A DNA stretch of 64,000 bases. Origin: a bacterium (GTDB taxonomy: Bacteria; Zhuqueibacterota; Zhuqueibacteria; Residuimicrobiales; Krinioviventaceae). How positions within the stretch are numbered: the first letter of the stretch is position 1; each line of letters starts with the position of its first letter. A program made the position numbers and the translations under genes. The notes beneath the pieces were generated by a model. It did not search any database. It was given only the letters and a program-made list of their open reading frames with translations, and was not told the origin of the DNA. Of this stretch, positions 23,588-41,077 are shown one piece after another. The stretch covers positions 480,001 to 544,000 of the forward strand of contig CAXXFV010000023.1 in NCBI GenBank assembly GCA_963674595.2, in the 5' to 3' direction.

Positions 23588-25072
23588 TTACAGCAGTTTT
23601 TCGGCACCGGGCATGGCCGTGCTGGAAAAAATGATTTCTTTAAAATCGTTCTGGCTGATTTTAATTTCCGGGTGTTTTTTGCCCAAATATTCGATGTAAT
23701 AATCCCTGATCATACCGTCGATAAAAGATTTTTCATTCTGTCCTTCCACAATGCTTACCGTACAACCGCCAAAACCGGCGCCTGTCAATCTGGAACCGAT
23801 TGCGCCGTGCTTTAAGGCTGTTTCAACAAGTACGTCCATTTCTTCAATTGAGATTTCATAATTGTCGCGGCAGCTTTGGTGTGATTCGACCATAAGCTTG
23901 CCGAATTCCCGGATCCTGCCGGATTGCAGCATTTCTGCTGCCTGTTCAACACGGGCCGATTCGGTTATAACATGATCATAACGCATTTTGATTTTAAAAC
24001 CTTCTTCAGGCGGTTGAAACAGATCGTTTGATTTGAGTCGTAAAAATTTTTCCTGAAACTCGCTGTCCGACAGGTTGAGCTGTTGTTTTATATCATCCAC
24101 ACTAAAAATGTCTTTATCAAAGGTTTGCTGAACAATCTGATTATATTGCTCGGTATCTATATCAAATTTTTTTATATCGACATCACAAAGCCGCGCAACA
24201 TTTTCAATTTCATATCCATGTGATTTAAACGCACTTGACAGCAACGCTGCAGCAATACGGCATTCCACAGGACGTCTGTTGTAATTGTTTTTGGCTTTTT
24301 CTGTTTTTGGCGCCTGCATCAAAGAGTTGCTTATGATAATTTTATAGTTTTCGGGCAGGGGAATAGTCCGGGTGCGTAAGGGGAAAAAATCGATTTTCAA
24401 TGCGGCATTTTCTTTGCCCATTAAAGAAACTGCCTGGTCCATGCCGCCGCCTTCAGTGCCGACGAAACGTTCCGCGCGTGCCAGGCGTTCGGCAAGTTGA
24501 TCTTTTGCCATTTCGGTATTATTTACAGTTAAAAAGGTCATAGCTGTTGCGACAACCATGGCTGAAGATGAAGAAAGGCCGGATGCAGCAGGGACATTGC
24601 CATCATATACGGCATTAAATCCGTTAACCTCGCCTTTGTTTTCCTGTATATAGGGCAATAAATCAACAATTGCTGCCTTGACATAATTACCCCAATCACC
24701 GGCGTTATAGGGGGTGATTTTTTCCATAATTGAAAAGGTACGCTGTTCGAACCGTTCATTGGTGTTTTGTACGGAAACTGCCTTTGAATCGTTTACCGCA
24801 GCCAACACAAGAATATCCCGGGTTACAGCCATGGGCATAACCGGATAACCGTTATAGTCCGTGTGTTCACCAATTAAATTGACCCGACCGGGTGCACGGA
24901 TAATATTAATCTCCTGCTCCTGGAAAGATTGTTCGAATTTAGAGACCAGCTTTTTCAGTCTTGATAAAAAATGAGTTAATTCTGTTTCTGAATTTTGATA
25001 AAGTGGGAAGAGTTTTTGAAAAAATATTAAATTAGAATTTTCGAGTTCTTTTTTCAGAGTTGTCAGTTTCAT
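23588..25072 (-). CDS. galK: Galactokinase family GHMP kinase (GALK2/Gal1-like)
   Basis: APGRVNLIGEHTDY, PAASGLSSSSA, GSRLTGAGFGGC. Confidence 0.88.
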   Translation of the reverse strand: MKLTTLKKELENSNLIFFQKLFPLYQNSETELTHFLSRLKKLVSKFEQSFQEQEINIIRAPGRVNLIGEHTDYNGYPVMPMAVTRDILVLAAVNDSKAVSVQNTNERFEQRTFSIMEKITPYNAGDWGNYVKAAIVDLLPYIQENKGEVNGFNAVYDGNVPAASGLSSSSAMVVATAMTFLTVNNTEMAKDQLAERLARAERFVGTEGGGMDQAVSLMGKENAALKIDFFPLRTRTIPLPENYKIIISNSLMQAPKTEKAKNNYNRRPVECRIAAALLSSAFKSHGYEIENVARLCDVDIKKFDIDTEQYNQIVQQTFDKDIFSVDDIKQQLNLSDSEFQEKFLRLKSNDLFQPPEEGFKIKMRYDHVITESARVEQAAEMLQSGRIREFGKLMVESHQSCRDNYEISIEEMDVLVETALKHGAIGSRLTGAGFGGCTVSIVEGQNEKSFIDGMIRDYYIEYLGKKHPEIKISQNDFKEIIFSSTAMPGAEKLL

Positions 25073-25161
25073 TGTATATTCCTTATTTTTAGAATCTAAG
25101 AATAATCAATGAAATGAAAAAAATTCAAGTAATTATTTACTTAATTAGAAATTGAAATGCC

Positions 25162-25190
25162 TTGACATTCGTTTGTAACGTTACTATTTT
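25162..25190 (+). promoter_or_regulatory. Sigma70 promoter containing a LacI-type operator GTAACGTTAC
   Basis: TTGACA(25162)-N17-TATTTT(25185) with the perfect palindrome GTAACGTTAC at 25175-25184 in the spacer. Confidence 0.75.
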
Positions 25191-25280
25191 AAATAATAAA
25201 TTCCTTTTTGTTATGAGTGGAATATCTGTTTTTAAGATTCTGTTTGATAAAAAAAAGTTTCAGAATAGAAAGGACATTTA

Positions 25281-25820
25281 ATGAAATTGGCTGATTTTAA
25301 AGATGCTATGGACATGTGGCGGACTCCGGAACGTATTGTTTTTATAACTAGCGTTGATTCAGACGGAAAACCTGCGATTATTACTGTGGGTTGGAAAATG
25401 CGTTCATCTTTTAATCCACCCTCTTTTGCAATCGCTGTTCGACAAGACTCCCATATGCATCATTGTATTAAAACTTCCCGTGAATTTGTTGTCGCTGTTC
25501 CCGGTGCGGATTTGTCCAAAGAATCCCTTGTCTGTGGCCTTCGTTTAAAAGAGGGTGAGGATAAATTTGAAAAATGCAGTTTTGAAACCATCTCCGGGAA
25601 TTATATTTCAAGTCCGTTAATACGAGATTGTATTGCCAATTTTGAGTGTAAAGTTGTGGGGCACCTTGATTCGGGTGACCATACGATTTTCAACGGTGAG
25701 GTGCTGGCTTCGTGGGTTTCTGCAAAAAATGAACTCAAAAATCTTTTGGTCATAAATTCGGACAAAGGTTATACATTGCTGGCTGAAACGGAATCATATA
25801 AAATTGGTATTATTAAATAG
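25281..25820 (+). CDS. Flavin reductase family protein
   Basis: SFNPP, EFVVAVP, ANFECKV, GDHTIFNGEV. Confidence 0.88.
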   Translation: MKLADFKDAMDMWRTPERIVFITSVDSDGKPAIITVGWKMRSSFNPPSFAIAVRQDSHMHHCIKTSREFVVAVPGADLSKESLVCGLRLKEGEDKFEKCSFETISGNYISSPLIRDCIANFECKVVGHLDSGDHTIFNGEVLASWVSAKNELKNLLVINSDKGYTLLAETESYKIGIIK

Positions 25821-25841
25821 CTTTTTGAACGGAGTAAGGGC

Positions 25842-26678
25842 GTGGATTGCCGATTGATGACATTTGAGGATACACCGCACCTGATGGACCTTGTACAATC
25901 GGCGGGCTGGAACCAGTGTGAAAATGACTGGCTTCGATATATACGTATGGAACCTGAGGGTTGTTTTGTCCTTGAAAAGGACCGAAAAATAATCGGGTCT
26001 GTTACAACCATTTGCTACGAACATAAAATCGGCTGGATTGGTATGGTGCTTGTGCATCCTGAATACCGCCGGCAAGGCATCGGTACTGATTTGATGAATA
26101 CGGCTTTAGATTACCTAAAACCAAAAGTTGATACAATAGGGCTGGATGCAACCGACCAGGGCAAACCGGTTTATGAACGACTCGGATTTAAAGCTGCTTA
26201 CTCATTAAACCGTTTGTTTGTAAAAAACAGTGAACAGCATAAAGATGACGAATGTCTGAAAATGTCCGCACAAGATATTGACAAAATCGTGCAGTTTGAT
26301 GCGGCATGTTTTGGAGCACGGCGAATGAATGTTATTTCCGAATTGTATGAGGAATTTTCAGATTTTAGTTTTTATACAATGACGGATAAAAAAATAAGCG
26401 GTTATATTATGGCCAATTGCGGTCGTAATGCCTGGCATATCGGGCCCTTTGTTGCCAAACGTGTTGAAGAGGCGGATAGATTATTAAAAACGTGTTTGTC
26501 CTGTTTACCGGAACAAACCATTTTTGTCGATGTGCCTGTTATTGATCAAACTTTAACATTGTTTAATAAATTTAACTTTGTACATCAACGTGATTTTGTA
26601 CGTATGTTTTTAGGTAATGAACCAAATCAGCAAAATTTATCGTCAGTTTATGCTACGGCCCGGGCTGAAAAAGGATAA
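25842..26678 (+). CDS. GNAT acetyltransferase (two-domain, YitH-like)
   Basis: AGWNQ, MVLVHPEYRRQGIG, LDATDQGKPVYERLGF, IGPFVA. Confidence 0.88.
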   Translation: MDCRLMTFEDTPHLMDLVQSAGWNQCENDWLRYIRMEPEGCFVLEKDRKIIGSVTTICYEHKIGWIGMVLVHPEYRRQGIGTDLMNTALDYLKPKVDTIGLDATDQGKPVYERLGFKAAYSLNRLFVKNSEQHKDDECLKMSAQDIDKIVQFDAACFGARRMNVISELYEEFSDFSFYTMTDKKISGYIMANCGRNAWHIGPFVAKRVEEADRLLKTCLSCLPEQTIFVDVPVIDQTLTLFNKFNFVHQRDFVRMFLGNEPNQQNLSSVYATARAEKG

Positions 26679-26704
26679 AAATATTTACCAGACAAAGAAA
26701 AAGT

Positions 26705-26756
26705 TTGACTTTTATATGGCCATTACTTAATTTGGTTAATCGGTAACGTAACCGAT
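26705..26756 (+). promoter_or_regulatory. lacI-family promoter with autoregulatory operator
   Basis: TTGACT-N17-TAATTT, then near-palindrome ATCGGTAACGTAACCGAT at 26739-26756. Confidence 0.75.
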
Positions 26757-26784
26757 AAAGAAAGTTTTATTTAGGGATTTTATT

Positions 26785-27798
26785 ATGTCACGTGTCAGAC
26801 TTGAAGATATAGCTAAAATTTTAAATGTGTCCAAGGTTACCGTTTCCAAAGCGCTTCGGGATTATCCTGATATTTCTGAGGAAATGAAAAAAAAAGTCCA
26901 TAAAATAGCGCAGGAGGTAGGATATACTCCAAATTTTATAGCCCGAAATTTGTCCGCGCATAAAACAAACACGATTGGACTTGTTATCCCCGATGTTTCC
27001 AACCTGTATTTTTCTCATATTATTCACGGAATTATTGATTATGCCTCTGAATGCAATTATCAGATTATTTTGACCGTTTCGCGTGAAAATGAAGAAATTG
27101 AAAAAAATAATATTCTAACACTTATATCCATGCGTGTGGATGGTTTGCTGATTTCCATCTCCCAAAACGCCCAAAATTTGAATATTATTGAAATGGTTAA
27201 ACATGCTGATATCCCCCTGGTTTTCTTTGACCGTCATATTGAGAATGCAGATTATCACGTTGTAGAGGAAGACAATTTCGGCGGTGCCTTTAAAGCAACT
27301 GAATATATAATTGAGCAGGGATATACCAGGGTGGCCCATTTGGCGGGTTCGCTAAAAACGAGTATCGGCAGGGCCAGAAAAGCCGGCTATGAAGCCGCGT
27401 TGGAAAAAAATAATTTACCTATCCGTGACGAATATATTTACGAGTGCGGTTTTTCGAAAGAGGGTGGTTTTGCAGGAATGAACCAGCTTTTATCATTGAG
27501 TGATCCACCGGAAGCTGTTTTTACTGTCTGCGGGCCTGTAAGTGTCGGCGCCTATGATAGTGCAAAGGAACATAATATAAAAATCCCTCAGGATATTGGT
27601 ATTGTCGGTTTTGGATTTAGTGAATTTACAAATCTTTTAACTCCGCCGTTGACGATAATGAGCGAACAGCCAAAAATCCTTGGGCAAAGCGCTGTTGAAC
27701 TTTTAGTTAAAACGATAGATAATCCTTCAGCCAAGGTACAGCATATTATTCAGCCGTTGAACTTGGAGGTGCATGGGTCTATTATTCCTAAACAGTAA
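26785..27798 (+). CDS. LacI family transcriptional regulator
   Basis: LEDIAKILNVSKVTVSKAL HTH, GYTPN..AR.L hinge, sugar-binding domain. Confidence 0.95.
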   Translation: MSRVRLEDIAKILNVSKVTVSKALRDYPDISEEMKKKVHKIAQEVGYTPNFIARNLSAHKTNTIGLVIPDVSNLYFSHIIHGIIDYASECNYQIILTVSRENEEIEKNNILTLISMRVDGLLISISQNAQNLNIIEMVKHADIPLVFFDRHIENADYHVVEEDNFGGAFKATEYIIEQGYTRVAHLAGSLKTSIGRARKAGYEAALEKNNLPIRDEYIYECGFSKEGGFAGMNQLLSLSDPPEAVFTVCGPVSVGAYDSAKEHNIKIPQDIGIVGFGFSEFTNLLTPPLTIMSEQPKILGQSAVELLVKTIDNPSAKVQHIIQPLNLEVHGSIIPKQ

Positions 27799-27922
27799 AT
27801 TCAATTCTCCCGGGGATTAAATCTATTTTTCATTGCACCATTTTTAAATTATGTAAAAATGCTTTGATTTCAGTTGAGATTATTAGTAACTTTTCAGTAA
27901 TTTATCATGAATAAAGCAATTA

Positions 27923-30505
27923 TTGAAAATGAAACCAAAGCAAAACACAATCCTATTATTTTTAATTTTTATTATTTGTTCGTTTTTGACAATTACTCCG
28001 TTAAATAAATCGGTCAAAAATGCTGCAACAGATATGCTTGTAAAAACCCGGGGCGATCAACATGTTAATCCCAATCTTTTGTTTGTATATATCGGCCAGG
28101 AAGATATTCAGGCTTTAAACGGTTGGCCTATAACAAGAGATTATTATGCTTATATTACACATATTTTAAAAACATCGGGTGTCCGTGTTATTGCTTTTGA
28201 TCTGTTGTTTGATACACCCGATAAACGTTATCCCGAATATGATGCAGATTTTGCCGAATTTTTACAGTCTGATGTAAATATCGCATTACCCATGGTTTAT
28301 TCTGATTTTCAATTATCTGATACGGACACGACAGGGGAATTCATTCAGGGGCAAAATCCCCGGTATCCCGTTGCTGAATTTAAAAATCATGCTGATGCAT
28401 TGGGATTCAGTAATCTGGGAGATGAAACGATCGTTCGTTCGGTTCCGGTTACGGCCCTGTTTGAAAATAAACCGGTGTTCTCATTCGGCCTGGAACTGGC
28501 CCGACTTTATTTGTCGGTGCCTGAAGAGCAGATTAACGTTACCAAAAAATCAATCCTTATGAACAGGGATGGGCAGGAGCTGATTAAAGTGCCCATTGAT
28601 AAACATGGGCAGCTTTGTCTTTATCATTTGGGTAATATTTCCTCTGTAAACAGCATCGGATTTGTGGATTTATTGACAACTTTGCAAAACAATCCGGATT
28701 CTTTAAATCTGTCGGATAAATTGGTCTATATTGCCGTTACATCACCGGGACTGGCGCCGTTAAAAGTCACTCCTTTTTCATCAGCTTTTCCGGCCTCTTT
28801 GCTGCACCTGACGGTTGCTGAAAATATTATAGGTAAAAAGTTTATCAAACACCTATCCGTATGGCCGGATATTTTGATATGTTTTTTAATATTTATTGGA
28901 GTGGTTTTTTTTAGTCGTGATTATAAAAGAACGATCATCACCGCCGGTGTTTTTTTCATAATTTATCTTATCCTGGTTTATTTGCTATTTAGAACCATGT
29001 TGGTTGTGCTGCCTGTTTTCTGGCCGCTGACAAGTCTGGTTTTGTCCTTGGCGGCCATCGGGTTGTTAAAAATACGGCAACGTCAAAAAAAGGACATGGC
29101 CCGTAAAAATATTTTAAGGGGACGAATCACAGAAAAGGAAAAAGAACTTTTCTTTGCTCAGCAAAAGTATGATGAGATTTTTAACCAGTTGAACGCGGAA
29201 AAGCTTGAAAAACAAACTATTTCCGAAAAGGCACAACAACAATTGGAACAGAAACAAAAAGACATTCTGTTATTGAAAAACCAACTGGACGACCTTTATG
29301 TTTATGAAACAACCAAATCCGAATCTGAAAAGGTTGTAAACTCGGAAATTGTGCATACCGATAAAAGTCCGTTGGTTCATATTTTAAATATGATTAAAAA
29401 GATAAGTGCCGATGATATTCCTGTTTTAATTTTAGGCGAGACCGGCAGCGGTAAAGAACTTGTGGCAAGGTGCATTCATCAAAACAGTCATCGAAACGAT
29501 AAACAATTTATCGCTGTTAATTGCGGCGCTTTATCCGAAACGCTTTTGGAGAGCGAGCTTTTCGGACATGAGAAAGGAAGTTTTACCGGCGCCCAAGCTC
29601 AGCGACGCGGCCGGTTTGAACTGGCGGATGGTGGTACTTTATTTTTGGATGAAGTGACGGAAACTTCTTCGGCCTTTCAGGCGAAATTGCTGCGTGTCCT
29701 TCAGGAGGGCACATTTGAACGTTTGGGCAGCGAAAAAACGCTTAAAGTCGATGTCCGGATTATTGCGGCAACAGGCAGAAATATTCAGGATGAAATTGCC
29801 GCTGAAAGGTTCCGTATGGACCTGTATTACAGATTGAACGGATTCCCAGTTCAGCTTCCGCCGTTACGGGACCGGAAAATGGACATCCCCGCACTTGTGG
29901 AACATTTTCTGTTTAAATATACCAATGACAAATCATTCTCTTTTTCTGAACAGATCATAAAACAATTGTCGGCTTATTCTTTTCCCGGAAATGTTCGTGA
30001 ACTTGAGAATATCGTCCGGCATGCAGCTTTACTGGCAAAGAGCGAAGGCCGTCATTTGCTTCAGAGCAGGGATTTGCCACAGGATATATTAAAAAATCAC
30101 ACGCCGACCGGTTATGTGGAACTGGAAGACCAAATTCTGGAATCTCTTCGAACTCTTGAATTTTCTCATTCCGCCATCAGCAAAACAGCAAAAGCACTGG
30201 GGAACCGGGACAGAGGAACCATTACAGAGTATTTTAAAGGTATTTGTTTTAAATACTATTATGAAAATGACTTTGATCAGGACAAAGCAGCCCGGATCAT
30301 TGCCGGTTCCGCAGAAACCCAAATTGTTCAAAAGGTAACGTCTAAACTAAAAGAGTATTTGAAAAATTTATCATTGCCATCCCGGGAATTATCTGAAACA
30401 GATTTTCAAAATTTACCCCAGTTGAAAGGATTGCCGCAAAAATACCACGAATATGCGATAGAAATTATAAAATATTTTTTAAATAAAGAAAATGATGATT
30501 TTTAA
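27923..30505 (+). CDS. Membrane-anchored CHASE2-domain sigma54 enhancer-binding protein
   Basis: N-terminal TM; CHASE2 motifs (WPITRDYYA, VIAFDLLFD, DADFA, VRSVP); three TMs; coiled coil; AAA+ (GETGSGKE, ESELFGHEKGSFTGA, FLDEV, FRMDLYYRL, FPGNVREL); C-terminal HTH. Confidence 0.9.
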   Translation: MKMKPKQNTILLFLIFIICSFLTITPLNKSVKNAATDMLVKTRGDQHVNPNLLFVYIGQEDIQALNGWPITRDYYAYITHILKTSGVRVIAFDLLFDTPDKRYPEYDADFAEFLQSDVNIALPMVYSDFQLSDTDTTGEFIQGQNPRYPVAEFKNHADALGFSNLGDETIVRSVPVTALFENKPVFSFGLELARLYLSVPEEQINVTKKSILMNRDGQELIKVPIDKHGQLCLYHLGNISSVNSIGFVDLLTTLQNNPDSLNLSDKLVYIAVTSPGLAPLKVTPFSSAFPASLLHLTVAENIIGKKFIKHLSVWPDILICFLIFIGVVFFSRDYKRTIITAGVFFIIYLILVYLLFRTMLVVLPVFWPLTSLVLSLAAIGLLKIRQRQKKDMARKNILRGRITEKEKELFFAQQKYDEIFNQLNAEKLEKQTISEKAQQQLEQKQKDILLLKNQLDDLYVYETTKSESEKVVNSEIVHTDKSPLVHILNMIKKISADDIPVLILGETGSGKELVARCIHQNSHRNDKQFIAVNCGALSETLLESELFGHEKGSFTGAQAQRRGRFELADGGTLFLDEVTETSSAFQAKLLRVLQEGTFERLGSEKTLKVDVRIIAATGRNIQDEIAAERFRMDLYYRLNGFPVQLPPLRDRKMDIPALVEHFLFKYTNDKSFSFSEQIIKQLSAYSFPGNVRELENIVRHAALLAKSEGRHLLQSRDLPQDILKNHTPTGYVELEDQILESLRTLEFSHSAISKTAKALGNRDRGTITEYFKGICFKYYYENDFDQDKAARIIAGSAETQIVQKVTSKLKEYLKNLSLPSRELSETDFQNLPQLKGLPQKYHEYAIEIIKYFLNKENDDF

Positions 30506-30542
30506 ATGCGGAATTTTTCCGCATTTTTTTGTTTTTCCGCAC
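30504..30542. promoter_or_regulatory. Palindrome AAATGCGGAA-TTT-TTCCGCATTT plus extra TTCCGCA half-site: candidate activator UAS (may also act as terminator)
   Basis: Perfect 10-bp inverted repeat about 85-105 bp upstream of the -24 element; followed by a T run. Confidence 0.55.
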
Positions 30543-30609
30543 TTGTGATTTAGTTTTGACGATATTGTAACTTATTTAAAAATAATACGTAAAATAATTT
30601 TTTCAAATG

Positions 30610-30625
30610 TGGCATTGTTGTTGCG
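30610..30625 (+). promoter_or_regulatory. Sigma54 -24/-12 promoter
   Basis: TGGCATTGTTGTTGCG (GG-N10-GC), about 40 bp upstream of the AAGGAG RBS and ATG 30667. Confidence 0.8.
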
Positions 30626-30666
30626 GAACGGAAAGTAAATTGTTAAAATTTACAAAGGAGTTTAAA

Positions 30667-31317
30667 ATGTTTCGCAAAACAATATTTTCAAGTTTAATAA
30701 TTATATTTGCAGTTATGAATTCATTTGCTGATACAAATTTAAAAGATCGTTCGTCCGGTGTTGGTTTTAGGGCTTCTTATTGGTCCGGTTACAATGACCA
30801 GTCCGATTATACTGTTATTCACAAGGACGGCAGATCACATGTGGATATCGGCGGCGGCGGCGGCTGGTTGTCCTTCTTTTCCCGCATGAGCGAAAATGAT
30901 GTTCTTGAATTAAGTTTGGGCGCCCTGGGCAATGCTGAAACCAAAACTACTTATTATTACGGTGAAGACACCGATGTGAATGTTGTTGCCGCTGTAACAT
31001 TGGGTATTCGGCATGAGTTTTATTCTTTTTATCATAATAAAGCCATGGTCCCATACGTTACAGTAGGTGGCGGTCCCTATTGGGTCAGTGATATTTTAGT
31101 CAAGGACCGTGATTTTGATTATGATGATGAAGTTTTGGTACATACCAAGCTGCGTGCGGGAATGTATGCCGGTGCAGGCATGAATTTTATGCTCAGCAGT
31201 TGGTTCGGACTTGATTTTGACCTGCGCTATCATTTGATTAATTTTGACGTGAATAATGATTATAGCGGCTGGGAAACCGGATTAGGTTTTAATTTTTATT
31301 GGGGTTCATTTAATTAA
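30667..31317 (+). CDS. Outer-membrane beta-barrel protein (8-stranded type)
   Basis: Signal peptide from MFRKT; alternating strands, PYVTVGGG, terminal GLGFNFYW. Confidence 0.8.
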   Translation: MFRKTIFSSLIIIFAVMNSFADTNLKDRSSGVGFRASYWSGYNDQSDYTVIHKDGRSHVDIGGGGGWLSFFSRMSENDVLELSLGALGNAETKTTYYYGEDTDVNVVAAVTLGIRHEFYSFYHNKAMVPYVTVGGGPYWVSDILVKDRDFDYDDEVLVHTKLRAGMYAGAGMNFMLSSWFGLDFDLRYHLINFDVNNDYSGWETGLGFNFYWGSFN

Positions 31318-31338
31318 TTAAACGAAACGAGAGAGTAA

Positions 31339-32946
31339 ATGAAAGTATATATGTTGATGATTGTTATGTTTATGTTTGCAGCAGGTAAAAATACTCAACT
31401 ATTTGCCCAGGGCATGGTTCGGTCAACCGGTATTGGTGTCCGCGGAGGTTTTTGGGATGTCAGCGGTCAGTCAACACGTATTAATGTAAACTCTGATAAT
31501 GATAATCAACATGTACAGGTGAACGGCGCAGGGGGAGAGCTGTTCTTTTTTTCACGGGCGGCTAATAATTTGTTTTTTGAATTGAGTATTGGTGGTGCGG
31601 CAAATGTCGATGCCATTGGTTCGGAAAATGATGATGAACAAGATGTAGATGTGGAAACGATTATTCCGTTTCTATTAGGACTTCGGTATGACTTTTTGTC
31701 TTCTTACTTGTCCGGTTCTTTTCATCCCTATATTATCGGTGCTGCCGGGCCATATTGGTCTACATCTGTAAATTCAAAAACAACAACCGAAGGCACAACA
31801 GATTCGGAAGTTGCAACCGGACAGGCTTTTGGCGGATGTTTGGGTGGTGGTGTGAATATTATTCTATCCAGTTGGTTTGCTTTAAATTTTGATACACGAT
31901 ACCATTTTGTTGATATGAAATCCGACTATGATTATACCGGAATGCAGTTTGCCTTGGGTTGTTCATTTATGTGGGGTAAAAAACGAGAAGCCATCAAAGT
32001 TCTTGGTACAAAGATTATTGTACAAGAAATATATCCGGCTTATTACCAATTTTATTCCATATATCCGTTGGCTTATGTGACCGTTAAAAATATGCTGGGA
32101 AAGGCTGTTGAAGTTAATGTGCGTTGTTCTGTCAAAGGATATTCGGAGCGGCCAAAGGAGAGCGGATTTATAAGGCTGGAAGGCGGTGAAACGCAGGACA
32201 TCCCTGTTACTGTATTTTTTAGTCCGAAATTTTTACAGGTACCGCAAACTAAAACAGCCATACTCGATTTATTTCTGGAAGCCAGAGCGGCTTCTGTTTA
32301 TCGGCAAAATATCAGTCAGGAAATAGTCATACACAGCCGAAATGCCTGGAGCGGTGAAATGGATAAATTAACATTTTATCTGACACCGGAAGAACCGAAC
32401 GTTTTGAGCTTTGCCCGGCAGGCAACAGTAGCTGTTTCCCCGGACTCTGAAATTTTGTTACAGAAATTTAATTATGCTCAAAATATATTTAATGAACTGA
32501 CATTGAAAAATATAACCTATTTGCCGGACCCAAATGTTGTCTTTTATCAGGACGACAGGGTACAGTTTGCTGCTGAAACCTTGGATATGAGGCACGGAGA
32601 TTGTGATGATTTGGTTGTTCTCTATTGTTCACTTTTGGAAAGTCTTGGCATTCAAACAGCATTTATAGAAACAAGAGACCCTGAAAAAGAGATTGCGCAT
32701 CTGTATATGATGTTTGACAGCGGGCTGGATGTTTCTCAGGGAGACTTGATCAGCAGCAATGAAAAACGATACATTATTCGTGAAAATCAATCCGGTAAAA
32801 AACGTATCTGGGTCCCTGTGGAAACCACCCTTATACCCAAAGGTTTTGAACAGGCCTGGACTGAAGGAGCTACATCCTATTTGAAAGAAGGTGTTTTAAG
32901 AAACGGTCTTTCGGAGGGATGGGTAAAAGTGATTGATAATCACTAG
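31339..32946 (+). CDS. Outer-membrane beta-barrel fused to Ig-like and transglutaminase-like domains
   Basis: Signal peptide; barrel paralogous to the upstream gene; DRVQFAAETL..GDCDDLVVLYCSLLESLGI, AHLY and WVPVETT motifs. Confidence 0.8.
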   Translation: MKVYMLMIVMFMFAAGKNTQLFAQGMVRSTGIGVRGGFWDVSGQSTRINVNSDNDNQHVQVNGAGGELFFFSRAANNLFFELSIGGAANVDAIGSENDDEQDVDVETIIPFLLGLRYDFLSSYLSGSFHPYIIGAAGPYWSTSVNSKTTTEGTTDSEVATGQAFGGCLGGGVNIILSSWFALNFDTRYHFVDMKSDYDYTGMQFALGCSFMWGKKREAIKVLGTKIIVQEIYPAYYQFYSIYPLAYVTVKNMLGKAVEVNVRCSVKGYSERPKESGFIRLEGGETQDIPVTVFFSPKFLQVPQTKTAILDLFLEARAASVYRQNISQEIVIHSRNAWSGEMDKLTFYLTPEEPNVLSFARQATVAVSPDSEILLQKFNYAQNIFNELTLKNITYLPDPNVVFYQDDRVQFAAETLDMRHGDCDDLVVLYCSLLESLGIQTAFIETRDPEKEIAHLYMMFDSGLDVSQGDLISSNEKRYIIRENQSGKKRIWVPVETTLIPKGFEQAWTEGATSYLKEGVLRNGLSEGWVKVIDNH

Positions 32947-32959
32947 TTTGGAGAATATT

Positions 32960-33667
32960 ATGTTAAGGAAATTTAAAATGTTTTTTTCCGGTATACTGAT
33001 GACAAGTATAACGTTACTTTATGCTGAAGAAGCCGTTATTACAAAAATGAGCGGTGAAGTCAAAGTACGCCGGGGATTGGAAGAAGAATGGGTATCAGCG
33101 GCACCGGGTACATCTCTGGATGTCATGGATACTATATTGACCCTGGAAGGAAAAGTATTGTTAAAAATTCAGGATGGAACCAATTTTGAATTAGGAGAAA
33201 ATTCCATACTGGATATAAGTGATTTACGACGTGTGACGAAAAGAGAGATGTTTCTTTATCTCATGTCTGCAAAGGTCAATAAAATACAGCCTCGCAGTGA
33301 AAAAACAAAACTGCGGGTTGGAAATGTCAGTGTTGTGCACGGTGAATCGAAATTAAAAGATGAAACTGTTAAAGAAATAAATAATGATTCCTGGTCAAAA
33401 GAGTTTAACGGCGCTGTGGCGTTGTTTGACCAGCAATTTTATACAAACACAGTCATAAAGTTGTCCAAAATTAAAAATAAAAATTCGGAATTGAATGATT
33501 GTGGTCAAGTTGATCTCTATTTAGCAAAATCGTTTGAGCATCTCAATGAACCTGGCCAGGCTTTGGATGCGTATCAAACGGCTTTTGAAGAAATTAGTAA
33601 AAGTGAAACATGTCAAAAAAATAGTCTGTCTGATGTTGAGGCAGCCATACAACGTTTAAAAAAATAA
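32960..33667 (+). CDS. Periplasmic FecR-like plus TPR protein
   Basis: GEVKVRR...L..MDTILT..G.V.L...DGT...LGENS FecR-like beta domain; YLAKSFEHL..PGQALDAY TPR; GGAG RBS. Confidence 0.7.
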   Translation: MLRKFKMFFSGILMTSITLLYAEEAVITKMSGEVKVRRGLEEEWVSAAPGTSLDVMDTILTLEGKVLLKIQDGTNFELGENSILDISDLRRVTKREMFLYLMSAKVNKIQPRSEKTKLRVGNVSVVHGESKLKDETVKEINNDSWSKEFNGAVALFDQQFYTNTVIKLSKIKNKNSELNDCGQVDLYLAKSFEHLNEPGQALDAYQTAFEEISKSETCQKNSLSDVEAAIQRLKK

Positions 33668-33758
33668 GATATAGCGCTATAGCGGTATTGTTGTAATATC
33701 GCGAACCCGGGTTCTCTTTTAATATATATCACAACGTGATGACATTAAAGGAGAAGTC

Positions 33759-34550
33759 ATGAAAAGTTTAGTTTATTGTTGTTTGATATTTGTAATTATT
33801 TTTACTGTTGGTTGTGGAATCACCGATTCCGACTGGCAGGTTGAAAATACAGATTTTACTGCAGAATCCGAATTTGATTATGCAGTCAACATCATGGGGA
33901 AAAATCATCTTCATCTCGAATCCGTCAACGGACCGGTGCATGTCCATGCCGTTAAAGGTCTGGACCTGGTGGCCGTTAAGGGCGTCAAACGGGTTGGGTC
34001 TGAAACTCTTGAGGATGCGGAACATCATCTGAAATGTTTTGATGTGCAGGTTAGACAGGACCTTAATGCCGTGCATGTAAAAACATTGCACCCAAAAGAG
34101 ACCAATGGACGTGATTATTCTACAAGTTATAATGTAACGATACCACAGGATTGGTCCGTCGATATTGATCTGGTTAACGGGTCAGTTGATGTCGATTCTT
34201 GCCGGAACAATGTTTCTGTAGAGGTAACCAATGGTCCGGTAACGTTGGAGGCTGTTCAAGCAAATGTATATGTTCGCACCACAAACGGACAGATACAAAG
34301 TGATCTTGTTCTGCCGGAAAACGGTTTGGCTGACCTTAAAACGACCAACGGATTTGTATCGCTTTTGCTGCCAAAAACAACCTGTGCTTCTTTTGCCGCT
34401 CAAGTTGATAATGGAGTTGTTCAATTTTTAGAGTTTCCTTTAACAATTGATAATTCTTCATCGACTCATGTGCGTGGTTATAGCGGTAACGCAAACGGCC
34501 GGATTTTATTACGTGCGATAAATGGAAATATTTTCGTTTACGGAAAATAA
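33759..34550 (+). CDS. DUF4097 (adhesin-like beta-strand repeat) lipoprotein
   Basis: Lipobox TVGC; repeated VNG/TNG motifs. Confidence 0.8.
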   Translation: MKSLVYCCLIFVIIFTVGCGITDSDWQVENTDFTAESEFDYAVNIMGKNHLHLESVNGPVHVHAVKGLDLVAVKGVKRVGSETLEDAEHHLKCFDVQVRQDLNAVHVKTLHPKETNGRDYSTSYNVTIPQDWSVDIDLVNGSVDVDSCRNNVSVEVTNGPVTLEAVQANVYVRTTNGQIQSDLVLPENGLADLKTTNGFVSLLLPKTTCASFAAQVDNGVVQFLEFPLTIDNSSSTHVRGYSGNANGRILLRAINGNIFVYGK

Positions 34551-34635
34551 TGTGCAGAAATTAAAATTGATTCGCTTGTTTTATCAGGCAATGTAGTAAC
34601 CCTATTTTACAAAATACACTTTTGGAAGGAATGAA

Positions 34636-36927
34636 ATGAAAAAAATTATTTGTATATGTATGCTTTTTTTTGCGGCGGTTCAAAGTTTTTCAGCGTCAAT
34701 GATCGCTACAACAGTCAGCGGCTATGTTAAAGATGCATCAAACGGCGAGGCACTTATCGGCGCCAATGTCTTTTTTAAAGATACTTATCTGGGATGCAGC
34801 AGCAATAACAGTGGATACTTTGTTATTCCCGATATTCCGGCAGGAAAATACACCCTGGTTGTATCCATGTTGGGTTATAAAATGTATTATAAAAATATTA
34901 CCATCAACAGAGGTCAAAACATTCAGCAAAACGTTATTCTGGAAGAAGAACCTTTATTGACTGAAGAAATTGTTGTGACGGCGGATTCGGTTCCCACTGT
35001 TGAAAAATTGTTTAGAAAATCGATTTCAAAAATTGAAATGTCGCCGCAACAATTAAAAAGGGTCCCGCAAATTGCTGAAGCGGATTTAATGCGTACACTG
35101 GTAACATTACCGGGAATTGTACCACTTTCCGATTATTCTTCTGCCCTGTACGTTCGCGGTGGTACACCAGACCAAAATTTAATATTGTTGGACGGCACAG
35201 ATGTATATAATCCCGAACATGCATTCGGTCTTTTTTCCACTTTTAATACAGATGCTATTAAACATGTGGAAATACATAAAGGCGGGTTCGGTCCCGAATA
35301 CGGCGGCAGATTGTCATCTGTTCTGGATGTAACCAACCTTGACGGAAACAGGGAAGAGTTTGAATGTTCTACTTCTATAAGCATGTTGTCTGCTAAAACA
35401 ACCATGCAAATGCCGGTGGGCAAAAAAGGTTCTGTCTCCGGTTCCATAAGACGTACCTATTTTGACAAAACGGTCGCCAAAGTCATTGATGATATTCCTG
35501 ATTATTATTACTGGGATGGCAATTTTAAGGCTTTTTATGAAATTAACAAGAACAACAAATTAACACTAAGCACCTATGGCGGTCGTGATGCGCTTGATTT
35601 GGTATTCAACAACAACTCGACCGAACAGACCGGGTTTTTATATGACTGGGGCAATAAAACCGGAAGTGCTAAATGGACGCATATTTTTTCGCCTCAATTG
35701 TTTTCCAATTTTTGGATTACAGGAAGCGAATTTACATCCAATTTTGATATGGACTTTATTGAATTGCAGGAAATTAATGATTTGAACGATGTAACCATCA
35801 AAGGAAACCTGGAATACTATTATTCACAACAAATGGCTGTCAAGTTTGGTTTTGAACAGAAATTTTTAAATAACGAGTACGAATTTAGTGGTGAACATAC
35901 CAATACAATCCGAATCAAGAGCAAACCGGAACACAGTGTTGGTTACGGAAAGATTGAATGGACACCAACACCATTAATAAATATTGAAACCGGACTTCGG
36001 TACAATTATTTCAGGTCTGATGAAATTTTTCAAAATGTTGAGCCCCGTTTTTCCGCCAAGTACAGGATAACGGACAAAGCGAATATAAAAGCCGCCACTG
36101 GTGTGTATTATCAATATTTACATCATGTACCACGATTTTTATTTGCTGATATATGGACGACATCCAATAAATTTCAGAAACCGTCCAAAGCTATTCACTT
36201 TATTTTGGGTTATCAACAGGAATTAGCCAAAGACATAGAGTTTGAGGTAGAAACATTTTACAAGGATTATAAAAATCTATATTCCTATAATGAAAACATA
36301 GCGGCTGATGTTACGGCAATTGAATATGATGAGGAAGGACTGCCGATTTATACACAAACCGAAGGTGTGTTTAACCGGGCAGACGGCTGTTCCTATGGTT
36401 TTGAATTGTTGGTCCGCAAAAATTTTGGCCGAATCAACGGCTGGGTAGGGTATTCTTTATCAAGAACAGAGTATCAATTTGATGTTTTGAATCAGCAGCG
36501 CTGGTTTGCTCCGCGTCATGACCGAACCTCAACATTGAATGTTGTTGCCAATTATAACAAAAAAATGGCAGGTGGTAAATGGACTTTTGGATTTAATTTT
36601 GTCTATTCCAGTGGACAGCCGTTTACGGAACCCGGCTCGGCGTATTATATTTCTTCTTCACCGATGGCGCCCATACCATTCGTGGAATATGCGCCAACGC
36701 AAATTAATAATATCCGTTTTCCATATTATGCCCGGCTGGATATCAGCATCGCTTACTTGAAGCAATACAGCAATTGGAGCCTTGAACCTTATCTGCAAAT
36801 TTATAACGTCGGAAACCGCCGAAATGTCTGGTTTGTTGATTATGACTATGATAATGGCGTCCCGGATTTTGAAGAAATTTATATGCTGCCTATTTTACCG
36901 ACTATCGGATTTAATATCCGTTTCTAA
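34636..36927 (+). CDS. TonB-dependent receptor with N-terminal carboxypeptidase-regulatory-like domain
   Basis: SGYVKDASNGEALIGANV, YVRGGTPDQNLILLDG, GGRLSSV, C-terminal GFNIRF. Confidence 0.93.
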   Translation: MKKIICICMLFFAAVQSFSASMIATTVSGYVKDASNGEALIGANVFFKDTYLGCSSNNSGYFVIPDIPAGKYTLVVSMLGYKMYYKNITINRGQNIQQNVILEEEPLLTEEIVVTADSVPTVEKLFRKSISKIEMSPQQLKRVPQIAEADLMRTLVTLPGIVPLSDYSSALYVRGGTPDQNLILLDGTDVYNPEHAFGLFSTFNTDAIKHVEIHKGGFGPEYGGRLSSVLDVTNLDGNREEFECSTSISMLSAKTTMQMPVGKKGSVSGSIRRTYFDKTVAKVIDDIPDYYYWDGNFKAFYEINKNNKLTLSTYGGRDALDLVFNNNSTEQTGFLYDWGNKTGSAKWTHIFSPQLFSNFWITGSEFTSNFDMDFIELQEINDLNDVTIKGNLEYYYSQQMAVKFGFEQKFLNNEYEFSGEHTNTIRIKSKPEHSVGYGKIEWTPTPLINIETGLRYNYFRSDEIFQNVEPRFSAKYRITDKANIKAATGVYYQYLHHVPRFLFADIWTTSNKFQKPSKAIHFILGYQQELAKDIEFEVETFYKDYKNLYSYNENIAADVTAIEYDEEGLPIYTQTEGVFNRADGCSYGFELLVRKNFGRINGWVGYSLSRTEYQFDVLNQQRWFAPRHDRTSTLNVVANYNKKMAGGKWTFGFNFVYSSGQPFTEPGSAYYISSSPMAPIPFVEYAPTQINNIRFPYYARLDISIAYLKQYSNWSLEPYLQIYNVGNRRNVWFVDYDYDNGVPDFEEIYMLPILPTIGFNIRF

Positions 36928-36950
36928 CTAATGAACACAGGAGTTTTATA

Positions 36951-37871
36951 ATGAAAAAAATCATTTTTTATTGTTTTATATTGTCATTTACTTTAATCTT
37001 TGCTTGTGGTAAAAGTATTGTTTCGGTAACAAACGAGAGTTATGAACCGAAAATTGTTGTGCAGGGATATTTAACAGCCAATCTCCCCATTCAAGATATA
37101 ATTATTACCCGTAACTTTCCTGTTGGTTCAAATCTTGAAAAGATGAATATTTTCCCGGATGTTAATACCACATCAGTAACAGTAGAAAACCTGACCGACC
37201 AGAAAATTTACACTCTTTCTTTTAAAGCGTCTGAAAATGGTAAAACAAATGAAGGAAGTTGGTGTTGTTTAGATCCGGGTGTGCGGGTTGAATATGGCAA
37301 AACATATCGTTTGAACGTATCTGCAACAGTTGAGGGGACAAAATTAAATACCAGTTCCACAACAACTGTTCCAAATGAAGGACTTGCTATTGTGTCTGTA
37401 AATTATGATAAACTGACATATCGCCAAAAAGATTACAATGATCATGTGATGAGTTTTAGTGTAACTTTTGGTCGTTCACCGGAAACGGATTTTTATTTAT
37501 ATGGAATAATGGCTGTTGATGCCCATCCGGATTCGTTCATTTATGATAATCCGGTTCTGGATTATGATCGGGAAGATGTTGTAAAAGACCTGGAAGACCT
37601 GAAATACACTCATGACTGGAACCAAAATTTGGATCCTGATTTAGACAGAATAACGACCTATCTGGATTGGTTTAGTTTCTGGTTTTATGGAAATTATCAA
37701 ATTACTGTTTACGCGGTGGATAAAAATTATGCACGGTTTTTACAAACCTATAATGATGTTCAGGAAATGGATGGTAATTTTCATGAGGCGAGATTTTGTT
37801 TTGAGGGTGACGGTATCGGCGTTTTTGGCTCTGTTGTTGCCGATACTGTCAGTGTAAAGATTGTGCATTAA
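36951..37871 (+). CDS. DUF4249 family lipoprotein
   Basis: Lipobox IFAC, PKIVVQGYL, GKTYRLNV, GIGVFG; follows the TBDR as is typical. Confidence 0.8.
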   Translation: MKKIIFYCFILSFTLIFACGKSIVSVTNESYEPKIVVQGYLTANLPIQDIIITRNFPVGSNLEKMNIFPDVNTTSVTVENLTDQKIYTLSFKASENGKTNEGSWCCLDPGVRVEYGKTYRLNVSATVEGTKLNTSSTTTVPNEGLAIVSVNYDKLTYRQKDYNDHVMSFSVTFGRSPETDFYLYGIMAVDAHPDSFIYDNPVLDYDREDVVKDLEDLKYTHDWNQNLDPDLDRITTYLDWFSFWFYGNYQITVYAVDKNYARFLQTYNDVQEMDGNFHEARFCFEGDGIGVFGSVVADTVSVKIVH

Positions 37872-37892
37872 AAAAAATTAAGATAGTTTGAA

Positions 37893-37923
37893 TTGACCGG
37901 TGCAGTAAAGCTGCACCGGTTAA
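37893..37923. terminator. Bidirectional terminator
   Basis: TTGACCGGTGCAG-TAAAG-CTGCACCGGTTAA between convergent genes. Confidence 0.75.
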
Positions 37924-37931
37924 AAGGTTTT

Positions 37932-39086
37932 TTACTTGCTGTAAATTTTGCTAATTATTTTCCCTGATGTATTTATATAATAGGCTTTGTCCTTTTTAAT
38001 CACAATCGCTATTCCATTATAAAATGGATAGGCAACATCATAATTATCGTTCAAAATTATTTCATCTTTTTGATTTATATAAACCCAGCCGATTTCGTTC
38101 AACACCGGTGCCAATCCATTATTAAAACTTGCACCGGTTTTATACGTCGGTTCCAGAACAAATTCACCTTGTTTGTCGATATATCCGGTTTTGTCATTGT
38201 ATTTTACACACGATAGATTTTGAGAAAAATTTGCGGCAAAATCAAATTTGGGGTCAATAATCCATTCACCGTCTTTATTGATAAATCCCATTTTGTCATC
38301 AACACACACTCTGGCCAGACCTTCATCAAAAGCCCATGCTTTCTGAAATTGTGGTTCTATGACAACAGAGCCTTGTTTGTTTATATAGCCAAATTTTCCA
38401 TCCAAAGAAATGGCCGCCAAACCTTCTTTAAAATCGCCTGCCTGATCAAATTGTGGTTCAATTTGGAAATTTCCTTTTTTGTCGATAAATCCAAATTTTT
38501 TCTTGATTTGAACTCTGGCCAAATCCTCGGAAAAAGGTCCGACATAATCAAATTGTGGTTCAATTTGTATCGTGCCGTTTTTATTTAAATAACCGTATTT
38601 ATAATCCCAAAAGACAAAAAAAGCTCTTTTTTTCATTTTTACCTGCAACAAACCTTCTTTACAGTCGCCGATCCAGTTAAAATATCCCTGGAATATTGTT
38701 TCCCCTTTGTAATTAATTCCTATTAATCTATCACCGAGTTGAGTTTTTAATAAATTTTTTTCCTCGATTGTTGTTATACCTTCTGAAAATCTGTAATTCG
38801 TTGGGGGCATTTTAACATCGGATGTTTTGTTTTCAAAATGGATTTTTATCGATTCGGGGTCTAATTTTCTTTCAGTATCCAAAAGAATTTTCCCTGTTGA
38901 GTCAATATAACAGAGTTTTTTATCTTTAATGATCGGTATAAAATATTTATCTGCTTCCAACTGTTCTGTTAAATTGGTTTCATTATCATTTACACTGTCT
39001 TTTTGTTTTAATATCAGTTCATCGCCAAAAACTGCATTCGATAATAGTAAAATAAATAGAGAAAAGCTTATAATGCCCTTTTTCAT
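37932..39086 (-). CDS. WG repeat protein
   Basis: Repeated FSEGLA.V....KxGYIxKxG...IEPQFD. Confidence 0.92.
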   Translation of the reverse strand: MKKGIISFSLFILLLSNAVFGDELILKQKDSVNDNETNLTEQLEADKYFIPIIKDKKLCYIDSTGKILLDTERKLDPESIKIHFENKTSDVKMPPTNYRFSEGITTIEEKNLLKTQLGDRLIGINYKGETIFQGYFNWIGDCKEGLLQVKMKKRAFFVFWDYKYGYLNKNGTIQIEPQFDYVGPFSEDLARVQIKKKFGFIDKKGNFQIEPQFDQAGDFKEGLAAISLDGKFGYINKQGSVVIEPQFQKAWAFDEGLARVCVDDKMGFINKDGEWIIDPKFDFAANFSQNLSCVKYNDKTGYIDKQGEFVLEPTYKTGASFNNGLAPVLNEIGWVYINQKDEIILNDNYDVAYPFYNGIAIVIKKDKAYYINTSGKIISKIYSK

Positions 39087-40429: not shown

Positions 40430-41077
40430 CTATTTTTTTTGTAAAAATTTTATTTGTTGTTTAATCTCTTCTTGCAGTGTTTCGTAAAACTTGCCAACAT
40501 GAAGGCCGTCAATGAAAATATGGTTGACCTGAATATTATAAGGCAAAACTATTTTATCATTCAATTCGTAAAATTTACCCCAGGATATCCGGGGGATTGC
40601 ATCATCATTTTTTAAACTCAATGTGTGATCAATACCTGTGAACGGGATCCATGGGAGTGTAGAAATAAAAACAAAATCACTTCTGCCTATTAGCATGCTC
40701 AAATCAAAATATTTATCACTGTTTATAATTGCTTCTTTAATTATCTTGTCCATCTTGAAAATATCGTCACAATACTCGACAGAAATTAACCGGAACAATT
40801 CTTCATTATCCCGAAGACATGCAAAGGACGGATTTATCTTTTCATATTGGACGACTTGTCCGTTGTTGACTCTGTACAGGAAATTGTTAATTTTATTCAG
40901 TGTTTTTGTTGTTAGATATATTAAAGAATTATTTAAAGAAAGTCCATGTAATTTTGTCTGTTCTTTTAATCCAGTAATATCGACATTGAAATTGACATTA
41001 TAAAATGGCAGATCACTTTTGATAAAAAAATTGAAATGTTCTTTTCTGTCCCAATTATCTAAATTTATTTCTTTCAT
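40430..41077 (-). CDS. CatA-like chloramphenicol O-acetyltransferase
   Basis: WDRKEHFNFF, STLPWIPFT, PRISWGK, VNHIFIDGLH (HxxxDG); start moved to MKEINLD. Confidence 0.85.
   Translation of the reverse strand: MKEINLDNWDRKEHFNFFIKSDLPFYNVNFNVDITGLKEQTKLHGLSLNNSLIYLTTKTLNKINNFLYRVNNGQVVQYEKINPSFACLRDNEELFRLISVEYCDDIFKMDKIIKEAIINSDKYFDLSMLIGRSDFVFISTLPWIPFTGIDHTLSLKNDDAIPRISWGKFYELNDKIVLPYNIQVNHIFIDGLHVGKFYETLQEEIKQQIKFLQKK

Follow-up and report, generated by a model that had tools for sequence, protein, structure and literature searches.

We analyzed a 64,000-nucleotide stretch of a Zhuqueibacterota genome (assembly GCA_963674595.2, contig CAXXFV010000023.1, positions 480,001 to 544,000; referred to as the window here) and focused on seven co-oriented open reading frames (ORFs) at window positions 27923 to 37871, which begin with the gene of a σ54-type activator carrying a CHASE2 sensor domain (ACT) and continue with six operon genes, A to F (Table 1). 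Comparison of this locus with its relatives indicates that ACT very probably activates the operon promoter through σ54. That ACT drives the downstream operon had been proposed in a first-pass annotation of the sequence, and the proposal is now backed by a conserved pair of enhancer and −24/−12 elements, by the near-perfect phyletic co-occurrence of activator and operon, and by rpoN, whose presence had been named as a check and which is encoded elsewhere in the genome (Sigma54_DBD, 208.6 bits versus a cut-off of 22.8; 473-amino-acid [aa] open frame, G000:C8). The best explanation of the locus as a whole, which we hold to be reasonably probable, is a self-contained σ54 envelope module in which the secreted protein C docks on CHASE2 and closes a feedback loop.

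Searching ACT with Pfam placed CHASE2 (PF05226) at residues 17 to 326 (E = 2.9e-36; 125.8 bits versus a cut-off of 26.3), Sigma54_activat (PF00158) at residues 481 to 643 (E = 6.6e-69), and AAA_lid_14 at residues 649 to 728, with no Response_reg match. One hydrophobic segment precedes CHASE2 (approximately residues 10 to 27) and three follow it (313 to 331, 337 to 357, and 360 to 384), suggesting that CHASE2 should lie in the periplasm and both termini, with the AAA+ and DNA-binding parts, in the cytoplasm. The linker at residues 400 to 475 consists to 51% of E, K, Q, R, and D and contains neither Pro nor Gly, as expected for a coiled coil. The Walker A (GETGSGKE at 505), GSFTGA (at 552), and Walker B (LFLDE at 573) residues are invariant in 24/24 family sequences; a Desulfovibrio activator, DVU3220 of D. 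vulgaris, is likewise tabulated with a GSFTGA motif and an assigned regulon in the available excerpt of PMC4641369. The NCBIfam RtcR model aligns to ACT through residue 822, and the C terminus appears to be a divergent DNA-binding region. The database form of ACT begins at ATG 27929, giving 858 aa.

A database search with the N-terminal 480 residues of ACT yielded 69 matches, 61 of which carry both CHASE2 and Sigma54_activat, showing that the CHASE2-σ54 fusion is a family, annotated only generically. Sixty of these 61 are 31 to 100% identical over 84 to 100% of the query; the 100% match (P0001) is the window's own protein, and the others are 31 to 40% identical. Where sources are named, they are candidate division KSB1 or Zhuqueibacterota. 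A profile search of genome contigs with the full ACT alignment drew on the AAA+ domain and returned 80 generic activators (L002 to L081), which were uninformative for synteny: module hidden Markov models (HMMs) found a CHASE2 protein in only 1 of these 80 loci (L056), where it is an adenylate cyclase and seemingly a chance neighbor of an NtrC-type regulator.

To compare gene order, we collected 40 loci with ACT orthologues from elsewhere in the phylum and searched their ORFs with the window's proteins. B occurs in 22 of the 40 and lies directly downstream of ACT in 18 of these, in the order A-B-C and mostly then D, so that the synteny on which the first-pass annotation had staked its reading is present. 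In the other four B-bearing loci, B is about 8 kb away (L119 and L135), behind a 1.5-kb gap (L128), or on the opposite strand (L131). Contig ends interrupt 6 of the 18 loci without B, and for most of the remaining genomes B is found on another contig or farther off. Orthologues of A and D were found in 18 and 16 of the 40 loci, respectively. Across 167 genomes of the phylum (a tally that includes the unpublished genomes G158 and G162), ACT is present in 74 (threshold, E ≤ 1e-30) and B in 65 (E ≤ 1e-80); each of these 65 also has ACT, and B is found in none of the 93 ACT-less genomes. Given their patchy presence within families, ACT and B seem to have been gained and lost together.

A metagenome scan with the B alignment added 79 loci, which we annotated with custom HMMs. 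Full-type B is encoded in 45 of them; C follows B in 40, the other five having no downstream sequence, and 27 encode D. In 19 of the 45, ACT is found upstream in the same orientation, while 23 are too short upstream. The conserved core, as delimited by these comparisons, is ACT, two small barrels (one of them carrying a predicted periplasmic Cys-His-Glu transglutaminase-like domain), the secreted β-domain/TPR protein C, and a Toastrack lipoprotein.

The palindrome, GG/GC promoter, six co-oriented envelope genes, and single strong hairpin listed in the first-pass annotation are all present at the locus. The perfect palindrome, a putative upstream activating sequence (UAS), is unique in the 6.6-Mb genome when 0 to 1 mismatch is allowed; at 2 mismatches there are 21 further sites, versus 13 for a control pattern. 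The promoter pattern has a single match in the window. The significance of both elements lies in their conservation across genomes rather than in the window alone. Upstream of the first operon gene, palindrome and −24/−12 element occur together at the window's own operon and at 21 of 22 B-bearing loci; at the remaining one, L142, the palindrome is present and the promoter pattern is not matched. Where the operon stands apart from ACT (L119, L128, L131, and L135), the palindrome sits at the operon and not behind ACT, and the pair was also found in 10 of 20 further regions upstream of A, taken from genomes in which B is unlinked to ACT (2 of these 20 regions are shorter than 250 nt). This conservation, together with the palindrome staying with the operon when ACT is elsewhere, suggests that it is an enhancer and not merely a terminator.

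Scanning 61 sequences on both strands gave 35 palindrome-promoter pairs at 60 to 170 bp; after removal of two with aberrant spacing (62 and 151) and of one alternative candidate at an already counted site, 32 promoters remained. The distance from UAS to promoter is 99 to 105 bp in 14 of them, 111 to 115 bp in 11, and 123 to 126 bp in 7, with none between, i.e., in steps of about one helical turn, suggesting helical phasing and looping on one face of the helix. The G/C core positions of the palindrome are invariant at 32/32 promoters, and a third half-site, TTCCGC(A), follows at an offset of 27 to 29 or 17 to 18 in 29 of them. The C-terminal domain of ACT is the candidate for binding this enhancer, and a transcript start would be expected near 30636. 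At the other end of the operon, the hairpin is the strongest of 13 terminator-like sites in a scan of 27500 to 38300, and the same scan gave no comparable hairpin between A and F.

Several observations weigh against this reading of the locus. On the window alone, both elements could be chance occurrences, with the promoter pattern arising in 30 of 100 shuffles of the window and the palindrome (≤2 mismatches) in 26 of 100. The palindrome and its T-run (30504 to 30526), with a 10-bp stem, also resemble an ordinary terminator after the ACT stop; in this AT-rich genome, the palindrome may double as ACT terminator and operon UAS. Nine genomes have ACT without B at threshold. Several of these are fragmentary, but G034, G064, and G152 are 95 to 100% complete, so assembly gaps cannot account for all ACT-only cases. 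Conversely, ACT is missing from three metagenome loci in which 4 kb or more of sequence upstream of the operon is available. The co-occurrence also exaggerates how many events took place, since related genomes are not independent. As for ACT itself, the layout given in the first-pass annotation (periplasmic CHASE2, three transmembrane [TM] segments, coiled coil, σ54 AAA+ domain, no receiver) is borne out, with a further TM segment ahead of CHASE2; its helix-turn-helix (HTH) is less certain: Pfam finds none (no HTH_8 match at E ≤ 10), and the alignment of the C terminus with the Fis-type HTHs of 79 other activators is in register but weak (hhalign, 16%; E = 0.0016). Finally, a ring of 4-TM subunits would have to reach promoter DNA from the membrane, which is awkward.

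We then considered the operon products, beginning with C (244-aa ORF; probable start, ATG 32960). Its AlphaFold2 (AF2) model has a predicted local distance difference test (pLDDT) score of 89.9 and comprises, after a signal peptide, a β-domain (34 to 94), a conserved helix (103 to 115), a low-confidence linker, and TPR-like helices (151 to 243). C has no TM segment beyond the signal peptide and no anti-σ part. The first-pass annotation had called it a FecR-TPR protein, a name of which the second half fits better than the first. TPR_2 was found in 19 of 23 members of the C alignment, TPR folds matched numerously, and a profile search of solved structures with this alignment returned TPR proteins only. 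The window's C has no match to Pfam FecR (PF04773) even at E ≤ 10 and is absent among the genome's 6 PF04773 matches; weak FecR matches appear in 6 of 23 orthologues (best E = 0.065), and hhalign of C against the genome's own six FecR proteins gave 88.6% (E = 2.6e-6) over 50 columns, corresponding to the first half of the domain. The FecR label is therefore half supported, at profile level and for the first half of the domain only. The best fold match of the β-domain is 5ix9 (Z = 9.1; root mean square deviation, 2.8; 73 residues aligned), the N-terminal retention domain of an RTX adhesin, which the available part of bioRxiv 10.1101/198937 uses as template for the LapG-cleaved module of LapA. 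Foldseek of the C model against the PDB gave nothing at E ≤ 0.001.

The complex model of CHASE2 (residues 26 to 328 of the 858-aa form) with C (30 to 244) suggests that the soluble TPR protein contacts CHASE2, as the first-pass annotation had supposed. Its ipSAE values were 0.84, 0.83, and 0.84, versus 0.00 for the best of 3 control complexes; the runs share at least 54% of their contacts, with a partner pLDDT of 79 or more. Of 157 solved complexes, 116 reach the pass mark, compared with 2 of 215 mismatched pairs, rates that are approximate here given the custom alignments. In the model, the conserved helix (104 to 121) and a TPR loop (205 to 209) of C meet the WPxxRDYY face, residues 100 to 110, and residues 246 to 253 of ACT, and invariant residues at the interface include F107, K114, and G208 in C and D71, Y75, and E103 in ACT (858-aa form; D73, Y77, and E105 in the 860-aa form). 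From this model, we consider it fairly probable that C binds CHASE2. The invariant β-domain residues of C (G41, V43, R46, E51, W53, L62, and D66) fall outside the interface and may serve another partner. The low-confidence linker of C contains, at residues ∼125 to 140, a strongly conserved RIGNVSVVHGE-like motif, a possible short linear motif at which C could be bound or cut.

The barrel proteins A and B are related to each other, A being 35% identical to residues 23 to 214 of B. A is a 216-aa protein with a signal peptide, read from an ATG at 30667 with a Shine-Dalgarno-like AAGGAG upstream; this is its likely start, since a longer ORF from 30607 would overlap the promoter. A matches NCBIfam OMP_myx_plus at E = 1e-4, under the cut-off. 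In B (535 aa), Pfam recognizes OMP_b-brl (PF13505; 30.0 bits versus a cut-off of 28.7) and Transglut_core (PF01841; 28.5 bits versus 23). The AF2 model of B (pLDDT, 84.4) has a barrel (28 to 215), a β-sandwich (219 to 331), and an α/β domain (340 to 535). With Foldseek, the barrel matches OmpA, OmpW, OprG, OmpX, and Ail (E = 2e-6 to 1e-4), and the rest of B matches the putative protease 3kd4 (6.3e-5) and TG3, factor XIII, and protein 4.2 (∼1e-4). By these sequence and fold matches, A and the N terminus of B are small outer-membrane barrels of the OmpA/OmpW type, and B is a member of the transglutaminase-like cysteine protease superfamily. Residues C422, H454, and E495 are invariant in 21/21 B sequences, and E495 is the likely acidic residue completing a Cys-His triad. 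An OmpA-like barrel implies that the C-terminal domains of B should be periplasmic.

Combining these elements, we propose the following mechanism. ACT would sit in the inner membrane with CHASE2 in the periplasm, and its C-terminal domain would bind the three-half-site enhancer about ten helical turns upstream of the −24/−12 element. A change of state in the periplasm would then let the AAA+ ring assemble and remodel the σ54 RNA polymerase, with no phosphorelay or second messenger, and the operon would yield four conserved products (A, B, C, and D), plus E and F in this lineage. The conserved helix and a TPR loop of C would hold it against the WPxxRDYY face of CHASE2, closing the feedback loop. 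We favor a homeostatic, negative loop similar to CpxP-CpxA, ZraP-ZraS, and PspA-PspF, in which C would keep the sensor off until a perturbation of the envelope titrates C or leads to its cleavage, possibly by B, and so releases the sensor. By analogy with these systems, negative feedback fits at least as well as positive feedback and, given that C binds, we lean slightly toward it. That B processes C is doubtful.

The first-pass annotation had instead proposed that the signal passes from the TonB-dependent receptor (TBDR) or the barrels through the soluble FecR-TPR protein to CHASE2 and turns the operon on, in a positive loop like FecA-FecR, which we consider unlikely. This relay shares with the homeostatic loop the link between ACT and operon and the predicted contact of C with CHASE2; moreover, the invariant β-domain residues outside the interface could bind an outer-membrane partner, the TBDR-like gene recurs at two different operon positions, and an outer-membrane barrel, NsrA, feeds CHASE2 cyclases in Sinorhizobium meliloti (PMC13001267, in the available excerpt). 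The TBDR, however, does poorly as the point of signal entry, being part of the operon in 5 of the 22 relatives' loci only and lacking an STN match, and C has no Pfam FecR match, a profile match to half of the domain only, and no anti-σ part. The relay is further disfavored in that periplasmic partners that an operon supplies to a sensor usually inhibit it, as CpxP and ZraP do.

Another route from membrane to promoter would be a signal-triggered cut that frees a soluble fragment of ACT (coiled coil, AAA+, and DNA-binding parts), comparable to the intramembrane proteolysis of anti-σ factors. Such a cut would remove the awkwardness of a hexameric AAA+ ring that reaches DNA while anchored by 24 TM helices, and it would make use of the long linker between TM4 and the AAA+ domain and of the operon-encoded protease-like domain with invariant Cys, His, and Glu. 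We regard it as very unlikely: the protease-like domain of B should be periplasmic, whereas the ACT linker should be cytoplasmic, the loci have no conserved protease of the site-2 type, and membrane-tethered activators that work without release exist, such as ToxR and CadC. Least probable is that the genes are coincidental neighbors, with the palindrome merely the ACT terminator, the operon read from another promoter, and ACT regulating something else; the palindrome in the window does have a 10-bp stem and a T-run, and each motif alone could occur by chance in 64 kb, but the cis-element comparisons already largely refute this, given that the sequence of the palindrome and not just its pairing is conserved at 32 sites, that it lies upstream of the operon even with ACT on another contig or 8 to 35 kb off, that it is accompanied by a third half-site outside the pairing and by a phased distance to the −24 element, and that B occurs in 0/93 ACT-less genomes.

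Activators of σ54 are normally soluble and switched by phosphorylation or small ligands, and we know of no ligand assigned to CHASE2 domains since they were named. Our literature search found no paper joining CHASE2 with σ54, nor one describing a membrane-bound bacterial enhancer-binding protein (bEBP) under the phrases tried, most subscription journals lying outside its coverage; this agrees with the earlier statement that no characterized system has this architecture. The module is thus uncharacterized, and what is new is the direct fusion of CHASE2 to a σ54 motor, bEBPs and CHASE2 sensors each being known kinds.

The closest characterized system is NsrA-CyaD1/CyaD2/CyaK-Clr of S. meliloti. 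In the excerpt available of PMC13001267, the outer-membrane barrel NsrA passes a signal to the CHASE2 cyclases CyaD1, CyaD2, and CyaK; accessible sections of PMC5498481 include among the Clr targets the periplasmic FecR-domain protein SMc02177 and the TPR protein SMb20495 and report constitutive cyclic AMP (cAMP) for a CyaD1 construct without CHASE2 (pCyaD1-ΔCHASE2). Both systems share CHASE2 inner-membrane sensors, a barrel, and FecR and TPR parts. They differ in output, which is cAMP and a CRP-type regulator in S. meliloti, whereas here the CHASE2 sensor is fused directly to the σ54 AAA+ activator; in addition, FecR-like and TPR parts are united in one protein here, the barrel carries a transglutaminase-like domain, and apart from the domains the sequences are not closely related.

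In regulatory logic, the module resembles ZraPSR, CpxP-CpxA, and PspA-PspF, circuits in which a regulon-encoded protein acts back on the sensor or activator controlling it. Among these regulators, ZraR and PspF are σ54 activators, PspF having no receiver domain, and D resembles LiaG/LiaX. The present module differs from them in its CHASE2 sensor and in an activator that is itself membrane integral, and we found no homology of C to CpxP, ZraP, or PspA. FecIRA-type signaling consists of an ECF (extracytoplasmic function) σ factor, a transmembrane FecR anti-σ factor, and a TonB receptor with an N-terminal STN domain. As in FecA-FecR-FecI, a periplasmic protein with FecR-like features would link envelope and transcription, and a TonB-type receptor is encoded in the operon of this lineage. 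In contrast to it, the window's operon encodes no ECF σ factor, C has neither an anti-σ part nor a TM segment, and E has no STN match. Judged by these sequence features, the module is not a member of FecIRA-type signaling.

Two further systems share single features with the module. The available part of PMC5192318 describes a Burkholderia "BiofilmReg" operon, conserved in Burkholderiales and Pseudomonas aeruginosa, that encodes a response regulator, a LysM/FecR protein, a CHASE2 histidine kinase, and a DUF4136 protein. Here, too, the gene of a CHASE2 sensor neighbors that of a secreted FecR-domain protein, but the system is two-component, with an OmpR/CreB-type regulator, and has no σ54, barrel-transglutaminase, or TPR part. 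In LapD-LapG-LapA of Pseudomonas fluorescens, according to the portion of bioRxiv 10.1101/198937 available, an inner-membrane receptor controls a periplasmic cysteine protease of the transglutaminase superfamily, LapG, which cuts beside an N-terminal β "retention" domain that precedes a helix and a flexible stretch. The likeness, through the match of the C β-domain to 5ix9, is one of fold and layout only, and the module has no match to the LapG family (PF06035), no RTX adhesin, and no cyclic di-GMP receptor. An extension of this likeness, which we regard as improbable, would make CHASE2 the receptor for a conserved periplasmic set of transglutaminase-like, TPR, and FecR-like β parts, with B cutting or releasing C as LapG cuts LapA and so flipping ACT, in a proteolytic relay free of kinases, second messengers, and ECF σ factors.

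The metagenome loci also indicate how far the partnership extends. In a second, divergent family of six loci (L228, L229, L233, L241, L244, and L247), a CHASE2-σ54 fusion of 856 to 917 aa is accompanied by one or two unknown ORFs, a 660- to 695-aa larger-barrel/transglutaminase-like protein, and a C-like protein. Five of these loci show repeated TTCC(G/C)GCA-like half-sites after the activator gene and a −24/−12-like element of the type TGGCAC- or TGGTAT-N5-TT(T)G; L228 shows neither feature. At L250 (1 to 4088) and L252 (6326 to 14314), a transglutaminase-like/TPR fusion protein, which in L252 has 1698 aa and also NHL and β-propeller repeats, is encoded directly upstream of a CHASE2 adenylate cyclase, suggesting that the association between CHASE2 and transglutaminase-like and TPR proteins does not depend on a σ54 output.

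Joining an extracytoplasmic sensor and an AAA+ motor in the same chain would couple periplasm and RNA polymerase in one step, with direct fusion to a σ54 motor taking the place of a cyclase, cAMP, and Clr, or of a kinase and regulator. The module thereby offers the poorly understood CHASE2 domain a concrete candidate partner with named contact residues, together with a defined enhancer and promoter that could be transferred to a laboratory host. The recurrence of transglutaminase/TPR partners beside CHASE2 cyclases, echoing the rhizobial NsrA-CyaK system, suggests that its lessons may generalize to CHASE2 signaling.

Turning to the remaining operon products, D matches Pfam DUF4097 (PF13349, Toastrack) with 26.1 bits (cut-off, 22.9) and, under the cut-offs, NCBIfam LiaG (E = 5e-9) and LiaX (E = 4.8e-6). 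E matches CarboxypepD_reg and Plug (37.7 bits versus a cut-off of 23.9), and the Pfam search gave neither an STN signaling-domain nor a barrel-domain match. Among the 22 B-bearing loci, E is within the operon in L112 and L113 (as last gene in both) and in L127, L141, and L142 (as first gene in all three), while the E-like ORFs of L116, L136, and L146 lie outside it. F was found only in L112 and L113, the two nearest relatives, among the 40 loci. E and F are hence lineage-specific accessory genes by this distribution and not part of the core. We also rejected, as a general reading, an operon for nutrient uptake through the TBDR in which CHASE2 would sense the substrate, E and F being absent from most orthologous operons.

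Table 1. Features of the ACT locus, with positions in the window
Feature	Position	Strand	Description	Basis or remark
ACT	27923..30505	+	predicted membrane-integral one-component σ54 activator	860 aa; Pfam, NCBIfam, TM segments, motifs
Putative UAS palindrome	30507..30523	.	TGCGGAATTTTTCCGCA (TGCGGAA-N3-TTCCGCA)	directly 3' of ACT stop; conserved at 32 promoters
Third half-site	30535..30541	+	TTCCGCA	28 nt after palindrome start
Putative σ54 −24/−12 promoter	30610..30624	+	TGGCATTGTTGTTGC (TGGCAT-N5-TTGC)	103 bp after UAS start
Gene A	30667..31317	+	small outer-membrane β-barrel	signal peptide; paralogue of B's barrel
Gene B	31339..32946	+	barrel + β-sandwich + transglutaminase-like domain	Pfam, AF2, Foldseek
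Gene C	32933..33667	+	secreted β-domain/TPR protein	alignment, AF2, hhalign, complex model
Gene D	33759..34550	+	putative Toastrack (DUF4097) lipoprotein, LiaG/LiaX-like	Pfam, NCBIfam
Gene E	34636..36927	+	TonB-dependent-receptor-like	Pfam CarboxypepD_reg + Plug
Gene F	36951..37871	+	DUF4249 lipoprotein-like, partner of E	Pfam DUF4249, E = 7.3e-15
Intrinsic terminator hairpin	37893..37923	+		14-bp stem, 7 G-C pairs, T-run; faces convergent gene 37932-39086

Some observations concern other CHASE2 proteins and reduced or extended forms of the locus. CHASE2 paralogues of about 730 aa are common across the phylum, and the second CHASE2 protein of the source genome is a 724-aa adenylate cyclase (L182, G000:C15:82000-99000). 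It is flanked by D-Ala-D-Ala ligase (Ddl), DAP epimerase (DapF), and a SpoU methylase, after which comes a phosphatase of the SpoIIE type; no FecR or TPR gene adjoins it. In L150 (genome G064), a lone C-like gene follows ACT; this locus and L147 (G034), both without B at threshold, may represent a pared-down or rewired module. An ECF σ gene follows the operon in three relatives (L124:7319-7864, L129:7256-7804, and L131:11194-11751), and L129 has, next to it, a 142-aa ORF without a Pfam match and an LTXXQ (CpxP/Spy family) protein (L129:6353-6823 was also noted). These ECF σ and LTXXQ neighbors give the locus an envelope-stress flavor.

In the window itself, ACT is preceded (23588 to 27798) by genes for a galactokinase (− strand), a flavin reductase, a GNAT acetyltransferase with two domains, and a LacI-family regulator, for which no link to the module was seen in relatives. 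Beyond the operon, an ORF at 40430 to 41170 (− strand) matches the chloramphenicol-acetyltransferase family PF00302 (E = 1.6e-32), with TrmO, YdeI/OmdA, and WG-repeat genes close by, all unrelated to the module. The G+C content of the window is about 39%, deviating to 51% at 12001 to 14000 and to 29 to 31% at 16001 to 20000.

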